The notes beneath the pieces were generated by a model, which was not told the origin of the DNA, did not search any database, and saw only the letters and a program-made list of their open reading frames with translations. The translations under genes were made by a program, and so were the position numbers. Of a DNA stretch of 64,000 nucleotides, positions 8,482 to 13,712 are shown one piece after another. Source of the stretch: Alphaproteobacteria bacterium (GTDB taxonomy: Bacteria > Pseudomonadota > Alphaproteobacteria > GCA-2731375). Positions within the stretch are counted from its first letter, which is position 1. Each line of letters begins with the position of its first letter. The stretch covers positions 128,001-192,000 of the forward strand of contig CBDDBZ010000032.1 of assembly GCA_965225945.1 (NCBI GenBank), written 5' to 3'.

Positions 8482-8644
8482 GCGAATTCCACGCCTTGCC
8501 CGGCCTCGAGGAGGCTCGACAGGCGAACCTTTCAGCCCCGTCCACCACGCTCGCCGGAACGAATTTTTTGCCGCTCGGGGCGCGGGGCAAGTCGACCGAC
8601 GACCTCGCGGCCTTTATGCGACAGGCCGCATGAAGTTTTTCAAG

Positions 8645-9423
8645 TATACCCCGACTCCCCGCAGACCCGAAAAAGTTCTGGCAATCCGGCTGCGGATCGA
8701 TTCTTCTCGCGGTCATGATTCGCGGTGGATTTCTGAGCATCGAGGAACGCGCGGCCCTGGAGGCGGTGACTCGGGGCATCCGAGCGAGACCCACGGGGTG
8801 GCGCGCCGCGCGAACGCCGTTCTGCTCTTGGATGACGGCTTGAGCTGCGTCGAGGTGGCGAAGGGGCTCTACCTCGACGACGACACGGTGCGGACGTGGC
8901 TGAAGCGCTACCGTGCGGGCGGCCTGGATGAAATGACGCTGTTCGACTGGCATGGCCGGTCGGGCCATCTGAGCCGGGAGCAAGAGGCGGAGCTTTCGGC
9001 CCATCTGAGCCAACGGCTTTACCGCGATACCGGCGAGGTGGCAGCCCATATCAAGGCGACCTACGGAGTGATCTACAGCCATTCGGGCTGCATCAAGGTG
9101 ATGCATCGCCTGGGCTTCGAATACAAGCGCCCGAAAAGCCTGCCGGCTCAGGGCCGATGAGGCCGAGCAGGCCGCCTTTATCGAGGCCTATGATAAGTTG
9201 CTCAACGGCTTGGCCGCCGACGAGGTGGTCTACTTCGCCGATGCGGTGCACCCGGAATTCCAGTCCCGCCCAGTCCATGGCTGGGTCAAGAAGGGCGACA
9301 AAGTGGCGTTACGCCGGACCTCGGGGCGCCAGCGCATCAATCTCCACGGCGCGCTCAACCTGGAAAACTTCCACTGCCCCTTGGTCCAGGCCGAGAGGAT
9401 CAACGCCGCCTCGACGATCGCGC
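8645..9423 (+). mobile_element. IS630-family element remnant: left end plus frameshifted, 3'-truncated transposase (ATG at about 8715)
   Basis: HTH region RRANAVLLLDDG..TVRTWLKRY, then HRLGFEYKRPK, then DDE start VYFADAVHPEFQ..GWVKKG..RINLHGALNL. Frameshifts at about 8775 and 9152. TA at 8645 is the probable left junction. Confidence 0.82.
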
Positions 9424-10047
9424 ATGGTGCGGCCCAACCAAGACATGATCGGTGGCCAGCCCAAATCCATGTTGCAAGTCGACGAAACCTGGGTTGGCGG
9501 GCGAACGCGTGGGGAAGGCCGTGCTGTTCACCACAAGGTTCTCGTCGCCTGTGTCCGATCGAGGTGCGTCATCGAAAGACCGGGCACCAAGCTCGACAAT
9601 CGGAAAGACGGACGCTATGCCGGACGCGTTCGGCTACGCCGTCGTGCCGACCTAGCGCCATCGAGTCGATTATGGGTTCGTCGATGCACCGTCGCGGGAT
9701 CGCTGTCGACTGACGATTGGAGCGGCATGCTGGCCTCGGTAAGCGCGGCTATGAGCACTTCGCCCGAGTGTGGTGATCCAGAGGCCATCGAGCGATTTCT
9801 GCCGATCATCGATCTGGTTTTCGCCAACCTGAAGACGTGGACGATCGGTATCCACCACGGCGCGACACCAGCACCTACAAGCCTACCTCCGAGTTCACCT
9901 TCCGCTTCAACAGGCGGACCCGTTCAACGCCTTCCGCTCATTGCTCGGCATCGCGGGCGACACCTCTGCTCCAACCTATGCCGAGCTTTACTCGGGAGAG
10001 TGGCGGCACCCTACATGTAGCGGTCATGGGCGTTAACCGGATAGGCA
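9424..10047 (+). mobile_element. IS1595 (ISXO2-like) transposase remnant, 5'-truncated with many indels, and probable right end
   Basis: Pieces VDETWVGGRTRGEGR, GRYAGRVRL, TDDWSG, LPIIDLVFANLKTW..GIHHG and EFTFRFNRR lie in different frames. Ends ...CGTTAACCGGATAGGCA. Confidence 0.78.
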
Positions 10048-10049
10048 AG

Positions 10050-10491
10050 CTTTGTTCGACGATAGAGCCATCGGTCGACTTCGCTTTTGACAGCATGCTA
10101 GCCAACGGGTAGACGTCATGAATCGTGTAATGCACTACGCCTATGACGCATCTTCGCTGCGAGATGCTGGAGGCCACCAATCCGGCGTCGCCGATCAATG
10201 CCCGCTATCTGCCTGGTCCGCCCTCGTGAGCGGCTCACCAGCACCTGTCATGCATCGCGAGGCTTGGTTCTACCCTCTTCACCGAAGCCATCGACGATTT
10301 CTTCCGCCGACGACTGCAGTGGACGACGTGGCGCGCGACAATTTCCGAATACAAGGATTTTCGGGTTCTGGGAGTGAGGCGCTAGCATGCGTTGAAATCT
10401 TTGTTCGACGATAGAGCCATCGGTCGACTTCGCTTTTGACAGCATGCTAGCCAACGGGTAGACGTCATGAATCGTGTAATGCACTACGCCT
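10050..10491 (+). repeat. 93-bp exact direct repeat (10050-10142 and 10399-10491) covering the upstream region and first 8 codons of the lipoprotein gene
   Basis: CTTTGTTCGACGATAGAGCC...GTAATGCACTACGCCT occurs twice, 349 bp apart. A further 16-bp match GCCCTCGTGAGCGGCT lies at 10220-10235 and 10509-10524. Confidence 0.95.
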
Positions 10492-11981
10492 TGCTTCCGG
10501 CGTTTCTGGCCCTCGTGAGCGGCTGTGGTGGTGGTGGCAGCGATACCACCGCTTGCAATCTCGCGGCCGGGGCGGTCGGCGGCGTACCCGGTGGTTGCTT
10601 GGGTGCCGGCGGTGGTGGCGGCGGCGCCGTCGGCGTCGGCGTGGTCACTCCGGTGGCGTTGGCCGACGCGGCGTCGACGAACGAGGACAGCGCCCTGCTG
10701 TTGGAAGTTACCAACAACGACTCCAGTGGTACCGGTGACACGGTGATCGCAGCCGTCGGCGTGACGGTGTTCAGCGTTTCGGGGAGCGGCGGCGTCAATC
10801 CGACGAACGGCGTGGCGGTGATCACCGATGGCGCCGGCGGTCTCGTCACCTATACGCCGGATGCCGGGTTCACGGGCACGGATACGTTCAGCTATACGCT
10901 CCAGGACGCCAACGGCGCGACGGCGACGGCGCTGGTCACCGTCACCGTTTTGGCAGGTTTGAACCCGATCTCGGCGACGGGGACGTTGGAGGGTTTGACG
11001 GAGCGTGCGAGTTTCAGAACCACGTCGGCGGCCATCGGGGGACTCCCCTCCGAGTCCGCGCTTCTCACGCGGGACACGACCGACAGCCGCATCACGATTG
11101 GGCCCCTTGCCTACCCCAGCTTTGATTTCGACGTTCTGCTCGGAACGGGCGGCGGTCTCATAAACGCCGACGTCATCGCTACATATGTGGGCGGTTTCAG
11201 TGGCACTGACGGCACCTTGAACTATTGGTCGATCAACCTCGACGCCGCCTCGGTTGCCCATGGGGCTCTAGGTCCCATTCTAATTCCCTCGGCCCATCCC
11301 CATGCCCCCTTTGACGTCGACGATCCAGCTACGGCTTTCGTCGAAAACCTGCCCGCCAACTTCGCCGCGCAGAGTACCCATTTCACGCGGCTCGCCCTTA
11401 CCATTCCCGGACCGGAGGGAAGCACGCTCAGTTTCGCCGGCTATGGCCTTTGGGAGGTGGAAGGACCGAATGTCTTCGGTACGGGTTTTGTCGGTAGCGC
11501 TTTCTCCTTCGGCGTTCTGACGGCGGCGGGCGCCGTACCGACGACTGGTAATGCGATTTACAACGGAACCATGCGCGGATTGTTCAGCCCGACTCCTGGA
11601 ACAGCCCCCAATGCGCTGTCCACCCTGGCGGGGACGGCGACACTGACCGCCGACTTCGCCGCCCAAACGCTGGCGGCCAGCTTCACCGGCATTACCGCAA
11701 CCAGCAACTTTGGCCCGGTGGCCCGCGTAAATGGAGGACTCGCCGGTTCGTTCGTCGATATCAGCGCGACCGCCACCATAGCGAACAACGGCTTCACGGG
11801 CGTGGCGACGACGGTGGCGACGACGGGTGCCGCGATCGCTCCCCTCGCTAATGGCTTGCAGTTGATGGGCGAGATCGACGGCAACTTCTTCGGGCCGGCG
11901 GCGGAGGAAGCGGGCGGCGTCATTCGCTTGGGCAACCCCAGCGGAGCCCACATCGTCGGCGGCTTCGCGGGAACACGATAA
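10467..11981 (+). CDS. surface lipoprotein with an Ig-like (Big_9/cadherin-like) domain and a C-terminal TbpB-like beta-barrel; putative Slam/T11SS cargo
   Basis: Lipobox LVSG-C20 then GGGGS. Ig-like segment PVALADAASTNED..YTPDAGFTGTDTFSYTLQD..ATALVTVTV. Barrel motifs VPTTGNAIYNG, LTADFAAQTL, IDGNFFGPAAEEAGG and VGGFAGTR. Confidence 0.82.
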   Translation: MNRVMHYALLPAFLALVSGCGGGGSDTTACNLAAGAVGGVPGGCLGAGGGGGGAVGVGVVTPVALADAASTNEDSALLLEVTNNDSSGTGDTVIAAVGVTVFSVSGSGGVNPTNGVAVITDGAGGLVTYTPDAGFTGTDTFSYTLQDANGATATALVTVTVLAGLNPISATGTLEGLTERASFRTTSAAIGGLPSESALLTRDTTDSRITIGPLAYPSFDFDVLLGTGGGLINADVIATYVGGFSGTDGTLNYWSINLDAASVAHGALGPILIPSAHPHAPFDVDDPATAFVENLPANFAAQSTHFTRLALTIPGPEGSTLSFAGYGLWEVEGPNVFGTGFVGSAFSFGVLTAAGAVPTTGNAIYNGTMRGLFSPTPGTAPNALSTLAGTATLTADFAAQTLAASFTGITATSNFGPVARVNGGLAGSFVDISATATIANNGFTGVATTVATTGAAIAPLANGLQLMGEIDGNFFGPAAEEAGGVIRLGNPSGAHIVGGFAGTR

Positions 11982-12056
11982 GGCACGGGACAACCGCCTC
12001 GACCGCGAGGAAGGCTCTTGATACGATCCGATTGTCTCCGATCCGATTGTCGTTGA

Positions 12057-13439
12057 ATGCGTCTGCTCGCCGCCGTGCTGTCGGTCGTGATCGCCTCGAC
12101 GACGGCGTTCGCGGCCGAAGAGGCCGCGAAGCCCGTCGTCGTCGCCGCCACGGAGGCGACCGCGCCGCTCCATCCCGCCGACGCGGCGATGATCGAGAAG
12201 GCCAAGCAGCTCGTCGTCCAGCAGCGCTACGAGGACGCGCTCGCGCTCCTGGACCTGATCGAGCCCAAGACCACGTCGGCGACGATCGAGATCGAATTCC
12301 TGCGCGCGCAAAACGCGGAGTTGCGGCGTGACCTGGAAGCGGCCGTCCCGCACTACCGCAATATCCTGGCCGATCATCCCGAGCTGACGCGGGTCCGGCT
12401 GGAGCTGGCGCGCGTCCTTTTTAGGCTTGAGGACGACGGTGCCGCCCGCCACCATTTCGAGCTCGTTCTGGGCGCGAACCCACCGCCGGCCGTGCGCGAA
12501 AAAGTCGACCAATTTCTGACCGCCATACACAACCGGCGCCGGCTCAAGTTCAAGTTCGGCGCCTCCCTGGTGCCGGACACCAACATCAATTCGGCCACGG
12601 ATGCCAACAAGACCACCCTATTTGGCGTGCCCTTCAACCTCTCGGACGATGCCAGACGGTCCTCCGGCGTCGGCATTTCCTTGAACGGTGGCGTCGACTA
12701 CTCCCGACCGATCCATGAGGGCTCAATCTGGAGACCGGGGCCGCCGCCAATTATCTGGACTATTCCGGCGGCGCCTTCGACGATCTGAGTCTATCGGGCT
12801 ATCTCGGTGACCGGTATTATTTCGGCGCCAACGATATCGGTATCGCCGCGACCAGCTTCAGGCGCTGGTACGCGAATGACGGATACAGCCTCTCGCTCGG
12901 GGGCCGCGCCGACTTCGGCCATCGTTTCACGCCGCAATGGAGCGGACGTCTGCGGGTGAGCGGGCATAGCGTCGACTATGATGGATTTTCCGGCTCGAGC
13001 AGTGGCGTGAGAAGGACCGACCTCGATGGAAGCGTCTATCACTTCCAGGCGGAGGCGCATTACGCCGTCGACGCTCAATCGCAAATTAGTTTCCTCGGTG
13101 GCTCGATCTTGGAGGATACCGACGATCCGGCTTTTTCGAACATTTCGCCCTTCGTCGGCTTCGGCTATCAACGGAAATTCCCGTATCGGATCACCGCCGG
13201 CATTCAGCCGTTGCTGTTTTTCCGCCTCTTCGACGAGCCGCTCGGCGCGTTTGGGAAAACCCGCGAGGATGTTGCCCTCAGGGTCAAGACGACGTTGATC
13301 TATCGCACGGACCTATTCTCGGGGGGGGGGGGGTTTCGCGCCGACGGTCACCTACACCTACACCTACAACGATTCCAACATCGGGCTCTTTGATTACGTC
13401 CGCCATCGCCTCGAGCTCGGCCTCACCCGCGAGTTTTGA
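12057..13439 (+). pseudogene. Slam (surface lipoprotein assembly modulator; TPR + DUF560 barrel), two frameshifts as assembled
   Basis: Signal peptide, TPR RVRLELARVLF and VPDTNINSAT. The reading continues in another frame from about 12722 (LNLETGAAANYLDYSGGAFDD...). After the G13 tract it returns to the first frame: FAPTVTYTYTYNDSNIGLFDYVRHRLELGLTREF*, with terminal Phe. About 460 aa if repaired. Confidence 0.82.
13321..13333 (+). repeat. G13 homopolymer tract inside the Slam coding sequence
   Basis: 13 consecutive G. A length divisible by 3 is needed to join the barrel to its C-terminal strands. Confidence 0.95.
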
Positions 13440-13712
13440 GCCGCGCCTCGCGCGGCGTCGGCGGCGCGGCGCCGGTTGAAGCGCTCGTTCCCTTCCCGGG
13501 CATGGCGCGGCAGGTGCTTGGCGCGGGCCGTCAGTGGATCGTGGAGAAGAACGGTGAGCCCCGCGGATGGTGCCGTGGCACCGCGGGCCGGCCGGGAAGG
13601 TGGTGGTCTTCGCGTGGCCAAGCGGGATGGTGCGCGCACGGGCGCTTACCATCCGAGCCCTCGGCTGATAACGTTATCGGCGACCACCTTGGGAACCGCG
13701 AGGAGCGAGACC

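Follow-up and report, generated by a model that had tools for sequence, protein, structure and literature searches.

A type XI secretion (Slam) gene pair with an Ig-domain lipoprotein cargo and a disrupted translocon gene in an alphaproteobacterial genome

We analysed two adjacent genes in a stretch of 64,000 nucleotides from an alphaproteobacterial draft genome (assembly GCA_965225945.1, contig CBDDBZ010000032.1, positions 128,001 to 192,000), in the following called the window. The first gene encodes a lipoprotein in which one immunoglobulin (Ig)-like domain is joined to a single TbpB-like lobe, and the second is a gene for Slam, the outer-membrane protein of type XI secretion systems (T11SS), here split into three frame pieces. 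We regard it as fairly probable that the two genes are a T11SS module with an Ig-domain, single-lobe lipoprotein as cargo, which worked ancestrally, whose translocon was inactivated in the lineage of the window, and which is now decaying. The genome of the window is referred to as G000 and two genomes of sister species from the same genus as G001 and G002.

A survey of the neighbourhoods of homologues, proposed in a first-pass annotation made from the letters alone, supports the pairing. In all three genus genomes the cargo and Slam genes are adjacent and have the same neighbours, a DUF971-like gene and a luciferase-like monooxygenase gene. Both genes are intact in G001, where Slam has 440 amino acids, and in G002 the Slam gene is intact and the cargo gene is split by an IS5-like transposase gene.

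The cargo lipoprotein

The cargo gene and its parts, together with the spacer that follows, are given below. Structural alignments were made with VIA, using predicted models that carry a predicted local distance difference test score (pLDDT).

10467..11981, + strand: cargo gene, lipoprotein of 504 amino acids, open reading frame (ORF) unbroken (ORF list; Pfam Big_9 and TbpB_B_D; orthologues in G001 and G002)
10467..10526, + strand: predicted signal peptide with lipobox LVSG followed by Cys20 (read from the sequence)
10527..10646, + strand: Gly-rich tether with Cys30 and Cys44 (orthologue alignment; pLDDT below 50 in the model)
10647..10946, + strand: Big_9 / cadherin-like Ig domain, residues 61-160 (PF17963 and PF17892)
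10959..11534, + strand: handle or pedestal of the TbpB-like lobe, residues ~165-355 (VIA alignments begin at cargo residues 165-183; orthologue conservation)
11535..11975, + strand: eight-stranded TbpB_B_D barrel, residues 357-503, presumed T11SS targeting domain (PF01298, model pLDDT, VIA)
11982..12056, + strand: intergenic spacer of 75 bp between cargo and Slam genes (sequence)

The N-terminus reads as that of a Sec/SPII (signal peptidase II) lipoprotein, the type expected of T11SS cargo. The putative lipobox Cys20 is followed directly by GGGGS and by the Gly-rich tether with its pair of cysteines, all as the first-pass annotation had placed them, and Cys20, Cys30 and Cys44 are invariant in 4/4 full-length cargo orthologues. 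The single Big_9-like domain proposed at the same time is found by Pfam at residues 61-160 (Big_9, PF17963, E 2e-16, 61.1 bits with a cut-off of 23.6), where Cadherin_5 (PF17892) matches as well with E 2.8e-7. Residues 357-503 match TbpB_B_D (PF01298) with E 3.5e-10 and 40.9 bits, the cut-off being 26, and this is the sole PF01298 match in the 6.27-Mb G000 genome. Close to the C-terminus the cargo carries GNFFGPAAEEAGG, a signature of the GxFFGPxAEExGG type that had been pointed out earlier.

Two AlphaFold2 models were used, one of the whole cargo and one of residues 161-504. The whole-cargo model has a mean pLDDT of 69, with residues 305-504 at 85-98, and the model of residues 161-504 has a pLDDT of 77 and a predicted template modelling score (pTM) of 0.81. 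With the latter model we searched 48,161 chains by VIA, independently of Foldseek. The C-lobe of TbpB (5kkx) aligned to cargo residues 183-504 with Z 17.6, a root-mean-square deviation of 3.4 and 207 aligned residues, followed by the NHBA C-domain (15.9), HpuA (15.4), haemophilin (15.2), HphA (15.0) and fHbp (14.7), with PmSLP at 10.3. The first 19 rows (Z 17.6 to 9.0) were all TbpB, LbpB, NHBA, HpuA, fHbp, haemophilin, HphA or PmSLP, proteins which we take, partly from recall and partly from published description, to be Slam/T11SS cargo, and the next row was OmpW with Z 8.6. Foldseek, with its own second look by VIA, concurred. The models thus predict an eight-stranded C-terminal barrel preceded by a handle, as in T11SS cargo, and the TbpB-like barrel of the first-pass annotation is borne out by profile, model and structure search alike. 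Models and the single TbpB_B_D stretch both give one lobe, and not the two lobes of TbpB and LbpB.

A stretch of about 190 amino acids ahead of the barrel had been described as an unrecognised middle domain. This description has to be revised, as the 5kkx alignment runs through most of it: in the models, residues ~165-355 are the handle ('pedestal') of one TbpB/HpuA/fHbp-type lobe with clade-specific loops. Two low-confidence loops interrupt the handle, one at roughly residues 214-243 and one, which holds the sequence HPHAP, at roughly 263-304. A HMMER search with cargo residues 165-504 against 1.84 billion representatives gave 309 matches at E <= 0.001; among the 150 matches listed, residues 165-300 were covered by four (P0001, P0005, P0003 and P0026) and the rest align from about residue 300 on. 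A protein-atlas look-up with residues 165-304 returned fHbp/TbpB-type clusters at <=0.81, within the range of shuffled sequences, and is a lead at most.

HPHAP, which had also been noticed at first pass, occupies residues 277-281. We considered it as a metal motif and ruled it out, since the position of the first His is occupied by H, H, W or Y across the orthologues; its second His is invariant. Furthermore, P278, H279, F282 and D285-D286-P287 are invariant in 4/4 orthologues, forming a P-H-x-x-F-x-x-D-D-P patch at residues 278-287, and the same holds for H265 and H305. In the G001 cargo the HPHAP-bearing loop has a Pro/Asp-rich insert of about 50 amino acids, which suggests a variable exposed loop.

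A TbpB-type protein would be accompanied by a TbpA-type receptor and by TonB. A profile search of G000, a draft of 96.55% completeness, gave 0 matches for each of PF00593, PF07715 and PF03544 (TonB_C), and the remark that no receptor is adjacent to the pair is hereby confirmed and extended to the whole draft. As positive controls, the TonB and receptor profiles matched in 3/14 named genomes (E. coli, Caulobacter and Bacteroides). One PF00593 match was found in G001, on a different contig from the module, and none in G002; TonB_C was found in 0/3 genus genomes. The lack of TonB_C is unusual for proteobacterial genomes of 6-8 Mb, if it is not a problem of sensitivity. The result for G000 argues against a hand-off of the TbpB/TbpA type.

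Capture of a nutrient in the manner of HpuA, haemophilin or HphA, with His of the handle loops binding haem or metal and with TonB-independent uptake, is a rather unlikely role for the cargo, yet a live competitor of adhesion or binding. It would agree with fold matches to these three proteins that are about as good as the match to TbpB, with the invariance of H265, H279 and H305, and with the predominance of haem and metal binders among the characterised T11SS cargo (PMC12282271). However, no TonB_C, plug or receptor-barrel match was found in G000, the first His of HPHAP is replaced in some orthologues, and the His-bearing loop, of low confidence and enlarged in G001, behaves like a variable surface loop. 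Moreover, a shared fold does not imply a shared ligand.

The occurrence of the Ig and lobe fusion was counted over 5.8 billion clustered proteins, the candidates being word-sharing proteins of 277-882 amino acids. Big_9 and TbpB_B_D were found together in 5 clusters, namely the window's own, P0002 (G001, 585 amino acids), the P0003 cluster, P0004 and P0005. An intact member of the P0003 cluster with 512 amino acids (P0169) is the G002-type cargo allele, and P0026 is a truncated form of a cargo homologue with 268 amino acids. Among eight long multi-lobe relatives that were scanned (769-1351 amino acids), an Ig family was present in 0/8. A contig scan with the alignment of the four orthologues was dominated by generic Big_9 repeats and added no further species with the full architecture; among the best 80 of 440 confirmed stretches (79 loci), no query range went past residue 304. 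Protein identity between species is 53-66%, at which synonymous sites are likely saturated.

Repeats of an ORF of 1607 amino acids at another place in G000 share 45-48% identity with the cargo Ig domain, suggesting that the domain was shuffled in from a large repeat adhesin. The Ig domain also matches a PDB chain named 'RTX protein' with E 0.005. Our literature searches found no paper that ties Ig-domain cargo or sponges to T11SS or Slam, and 'Ig-like', 'immunoglobulin', 'cadherin' and 'Big' have 0 occurrences in the main text of PMC12282271. The first-pass annotation had not recognised the architecture as characterised, and this agrees with the literature searched (for PMC12282271 the main text, without its supplements). 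Measured against the same literature, the cargo is a new variant, with an Ig domain joined to one TbpB-type lobe and encoded in a genome where no TonB system was detected.

The translocon gene and its lesions

The second gene is described by the following features.

12057..13439, + strand: gene of the Slam / T11SS outer-membrane protein, a pseudogene broken into three frame pieces (stop-to-stop frames, alignment to intact G001 and G002 orthologues)
12207..12458, + strand: TPR_Slam periplasmic domain (PF24575)
12719..12722 (about), + strand: lesion 1, one base missing (frames, orthologue alignment, run contigs, P0174)
12984..13010, + strand: lesion 2, in-frame insert of 27 nt, the same letters as in the interior of an IS3-family element of 1,420 nt (exact 32-mer copies, P0174)
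13321..13333, + strand: lesion 3, run of 13 G with a second frame shift (sequence, frames, orthologue alignment)
13349..13366, + strand: three copies of CACCTA (Thr-Tyr repeat) close to the gene end (copy number varies among runs)

A TPR and DUF560 gene ending in Phe, 75 bp downstream of the cargo, had been noted at first pass, and the profiles agree. TPR_Slam (PF24575) matches residues 51-134 of the first piece with E 3.1e-10 and 40.9 bits (cut-off 35.2), and the gene terminates in ...LTREF with its stop at 13437-13439. SlipAM/DUF560 (PF04575) is found in pieces with 21.2 and 15.8 bits (model positions 77-244 and 254-288), each under the cut-off of 22 because the gene is split. Two homologues score higher, with 48 bits for the same-species allele P0174 (372 amino acids) and 83.1 bits for the G001 orthologue (positions 2-288). 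From these scores, and from the 60-77% identity of the window pieces to G001, the gene belongs to the DUF560/SlipAM barrels, and it is the sole PF04575 match in G000. The nearest named relatives are from Emcibacter sp. at 35-37% identity, and the best plasmid matches of a neighbouring enzyme are mostly from Novosphingobium and Neorhizobium; as far as sequence comparison can tell, this is consistent with an alphaproteobacterial host.

The first-pass annotation spoke of a 'repaired' Slam, and the hint of damage in that word was right: the pieces span 12057-~12718, 12719-~13333 and ~13334-13436. After lesion 1 the starting frame stops at 12786-12788. In P0174 the frame continues across lesion 1, and the nine residues that correspond to the 27-nt insert of the window are missing. 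At the site of lesion 3, orthologues carry a short Gly-containing loop.

Lesion 2 is derived from a mobile element. The 32-mer at 12984-13015 has 51 exact copies in G000, of which the 50 others are inside an IS3-family insertion sequence (IS); 49 of these share 60-nt flanks on both sides with few single-base differences, and the copy in the Slam gene is without these flanks. The insert may have arisen as templated filler, with a microhomology of 5 nt. The element itself (orfA/orfB, rve-type integrase; 1,420 nt) is present in about 50 near-identical copies in G000 (e.g. L096), and the 27-nt piece comes from orfA.

Contigs of four public runs, DNA runs X1, X2 and X4 and RNA run X19, were mapped onto 10000-13600, giving other alleles of all three sites. 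At lesion 1, the X4 and X1 contigs carry one extra base after 12721, and X2 shares the 1-bp loss. The 27-nt insert seems, by span arithmetic, to be absent from the X1, X2 and X4 contigs (27 deleted letters beyond the listed differences). At lesion 3, X4 and one X1 contig are without 10 of the 13 G, X2 has 12 G, and a second X1 contig terminates inside the run. The window has CACCTA three times, X4 four times and X2 twice. By its listed differences, the X2 allele would still be out of frame and the X4 allele would have a complete open frame. We conclude that the window and X2 represent a broken haplotype, and X1 and X4 a haplotype free of all three lesions, an allele that other populations of the species thus retain.

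Lesion 3 raises the question of a contingency switch, in which slipped-strand changes in the length of the poly-G run would toggle the translocon within the population and with it the presence of the Ig lipoprotein on the surface. In Neisseria, cargo genes that depend on Slam are known to be switched by poly-G tracts. The run is inside the Slam ORF, at a turn with a short Gly-containing loop in orthologues, and its length differs among the data sets (13 G in the window, 12 in X2, tract absent in X4, one X1 contig ending in it and one without it). Furthermore, G000 has 29 G or C runs of at least 10 nt, 15 of them of at least 13 nt (up to 24), and no A or T runs of at least 10 nt. Four long G/C runs lie within 10 kb on contig C20 (C20:82001-91169), others for example at C31:96321 and C33:271743, and one repeat has a run of 14 in one copy and of 19 in another. 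These G/C tracts may be hypermutable. Nevertheless, we hold such a switch to be improbable. The upstream 1-bp loss keeps the gene of the window and X2 broken at any tract length, none of the contigs compared has a run of in-frame length, and length distributions are beyond the reach of contigs. The excess of long runs is also modest, with about 4 runs of at least 13 nt expected at random, as estimated from 65% G+C.

It is very unlikely that Slam is intact in the organism, the pair working as a T11SS and the frame shifts being errors of sequencing or assembly. In favour of errors, only one base is lost at lesion 1, and the homopolymer of lesion 3 is a typical error site; the 27-nt insert, as well as an upstream duplication of 349 bp, occurs in none of the three DNA runs, and G000 is a draft. 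On the other hand, the independent run X2 repeats the 1-bp loss and has a 12-G run, and the region of lesion 3 exceeds that of the X1/X4 allele by 10 nt, more than a miscount of one base. As a measure of indel errors we used the copies of the IS3-family element, setting aside eight of the 50 as truncated or interrupted. The 42 clean copies (59,640 nt) show 95 substitutions and 10 indel events, hence the assembly is not indel-prone; taking all 10 indels as errors, at most 0.23 indels are expected in the 1,383-nt Slam gene, against three observed. Additionally, 7/7 neighbouring ORFs tested have clean Pfam matches.

Export, role and surroundings of the pair

The working form of the module would be that of the G001 pair and of the X1/X4 contig allele. 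The cargo would be lipidated as a Sec/SPII lipoprotein, its Gly-rich tether being capable of a disulfide, and by analogy with Neisseria it would cross the periplasm unfolded by the LolA/Skp route (a Skp/LolA/Slam export route is described in PMC9090332). The C-terminal barrel would then be recognised by Slam, with its TPR part and 14-strand barrel, and the cargo threaded to the cell surface, where the Ig domain and the variable loops of the lobe would be exposed. In the window genome the translocon is probably inactivated by the 1-bp loss, the IS-derived insert of 27 nt and the poly-G expansion, so that the cargo, its ORF still intact, would be expected to remain facing the periplasm or to be degraded.

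Earlier, the pair had been read as a T11SS displaying an adhesin or other non-nutrient surface protein. The T11SS pair with an Ig-domain cargo stands, and the display is not supported for the window genome: as the sole Slam gene of G000 is a pseudogene with three lesions, surface display is not to be expected there. With neither a TonB-dependent receptor nor a TonB domain detected, the cargo most likely serves binding or adhesion and not a TbpA-type hand-off, and a role as an adhesin is plausible. The module appears to be dispensable and to decay in a lineage-specific manner in an IS-rich region, the cargo being IS-split in G002 and Slam broken in the window.

In the RNA library X19, two contigs lie inside the cargo gene, at 10624-10856 (2 differences) and 11278-11528 (0 differences). 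DNA is possible in RNA libraries, and the contigs are therefore a weak hint of cargo transcription. X19 has no contig over the Slam gene, which is absence of cover only and not evidence of silence. That the lipoprotein is independent of Slam, an ordinary outer-membrane lipoprotein facing the periplasm with an incidental neighbour, is hardly credible: its ORF is intact despite the broken sole Slam gene and the X19 contigs map within it, but the adjacency is kept in all three genus genomes, the 19 best structural matches are all of the eight protein types named above, and 185/353 curated Slam genes adjoin a lipoprotein gene (PMC5449769).

Several points weigh against a once-working, now decaying module. 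The model is poor over the Ig domain (pLDDT below 50), whose fold is assigned from its Pfam match only. The NCBIfam equivalog NF041636 (slam_lipo) scores 39.7 bits on the cargo, below its cut-off of 80, and covers model positions 41-154 only. A local chimera of the assembly could account for the 27-nt insert. The alleles are taken from contigs and not from reads, at low depths (4.55 and 3.72 in X1, 3.8 in X2 and 20 in X4, the last being one contig), and the open frame of X4 comes from listed differences and not from reading the contig. The G000 assembly (39 contigs, 5.58% contaminated) could lack a part in which a second Slam gene or a TonB-dependent receptor is encoded. Finally, should the X19 contigs be genuine transcripts, the cargo may still serve another function.

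The stretch, or part of it, occurs in twenty runs belonging to 7 studies, and several of these runs are labelled sponge metagenome. The best is X14 with a share of 0.56 of sampled words, followed by X15-X17 (sponge label) with 0.40-0.48 and X18 (marine sediment label) with 0.21. Run labels and word shares give a sponge or marine habitat as a lead.

One may speculate, and we consider it unlikely, that a bacterium with no detectable TonB in sponge-labelled metagenomes uses a T11SS Ig lipoprotein for host contact. Display would be switched at the population level by hypermutable or IS-driven inactivation of either partner (poly-G and IS filler in the translocon, IS insertion in the cargo), with on and off lineages coexisting in different hosts. 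If true, a T11SS outside pathogens would display a surface antigen that is variable and has no nutritional role. If the pair works, a TbpB-type lobe can carry an adhesin-type fold to the surface, which would widen the cargo rule and be of relevance for the engineering of surface display. The natural set of alleles, with both genes intact in G001, the translocon broken in the window and the cargo broken in G002, is a ready comparison for Slam dependence and the cost of display.

Upstream of the cargo gene the window has the following features.

8644..10049, + strand: IS debris between the DUF971-like gene and the cargo gene, consisting of the 5' part of an IS630-family element and an IS1595-like fragment (Pfam HTH_29, DDE_3, DDE_Tnp_IS1595; blastn genomic copies)
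10047..10142, + strand: 96-nt direct repeat, copy 1, duplicating the cargo start region (sequence comparison)

The debris amounts to 1.4 kb in the window. Copy 2 of the direct repeat is at 10396-10491, 99% identical to copy 1 at a spacing of 349, and the two copies bracket 253 nt that are 80-86% like the 3' end of an IS630-like element. Copy 1 opens an ORF of 98 amino acids whose first eight residues are the same as in the cargo. The 349-bp unit is missing from an X1 contig, in which 10049 is followed directly by 10399. The 11-12 nt immediately 5' of the cargo start codon that are common to G001 and G002 (L015, L016) are missing from the window (10455-10466), and upstream homology to G001 and G002 is poor beyond about -30; the ribosome-binding and promoter region of the window cargo may be altered. 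Positions 10000-10049 are the end of another repeat, the 40-mer at 10010-10049 having 21 copies in G000. Summed contig depth at 10000-10049 is very high in all four runs, the DNA runs giving 58,083 to 112,070 and the RNA run 719, and many run contigs diverge after 10049-10061.

Comparison with known systems

T11SS cargo are built as effector, pedestal and barrel, with about ten architectures that include alphaproteobacterial surface proteins from Sphingomonas (PMC12282271). All experimentally verified cargo belong to the animal-associated cluster 1 and are adhesins, haemophores or metal-binding proteins (PMC12282271). In curated Slam neighbourhoods, the lipoproteins have a variable region preceding the barrel (PMC5449769).

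The window pair resembles the Neisseria pairs Slam1/TbpB and Slam2/HpuA (subcluster 1A) in that a TPR and DUF560 gene, ending in Phe, is found beside the gene of an SPII lipoprotein, the cargo of which has a handle followed by an eight-stranded TbpB_B_D barrel and matches both the TbpB C-lobe and HpuA in structure. Unlike the two-lobed TbpB-type cargo of Neisseria, the window cargo has one lobe, with the Big_9 Ig domain between lipid anchor and lobe. A TbpA/HpuB-type receptor or TonB_C was found neither nearby nor in G000, the translocon is broken, and it is only distantly related to Neisseria Slam, its best named relative being that from Emcibacter.

With fHbp, NHBA, haemophilin/HrpC, HphA and PmSLP the window cargo shares a single-lobe effector-pedestal-barrel plan (Z 10-16; PMC12282271). 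It differs from the single-lobe cargo among the roughly ten architectures in section 15 of that paper by its Ig domain, and from single-lobe cargo in general by handle loops that are clade-specific, being found in four among the 150 matches listed.

At first pass, Slam proteins had been described as characterised mainly in host-associated Beta- and Gammaproteobacteria. The Slam gene beside its cargo is real, and alphaproteobacterial T11SS are already known (PMC8406197, PMC12282271). The Slam proteins of Sphingomonadaceae form subcluster 1C, of which TonB and TonB-dependent receptors are the usual associates (PMC8406197). Like the Sphingomonas surface proteins and subcluster 1C, the window pair is an alphaproteobacterial T11SS, from a largely non-pathogenic group, with TbpBBD cargo; the Sphingomonas cargo has several TbpBBD copies and Pro-Thr repeats, whereas the window cargo has a single lobe and an Ig domain (PMC12282271, PMC8406197).

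The Ig domain connects the cargo to the Big_9 and cadherin-like repeat adhesins, the large RTX-type proteins, through its PF17963 and PF17892 matches and its identity to the repeats of the 1607-aa ORF. Large RTX-type repeat adhesins are exported by type 1 secretion. Unlike these, the window cargo has one Ig copy in place of a tandem array, is predicted to be lipid-anchored, and is fused to a T11SS targeting lobe.

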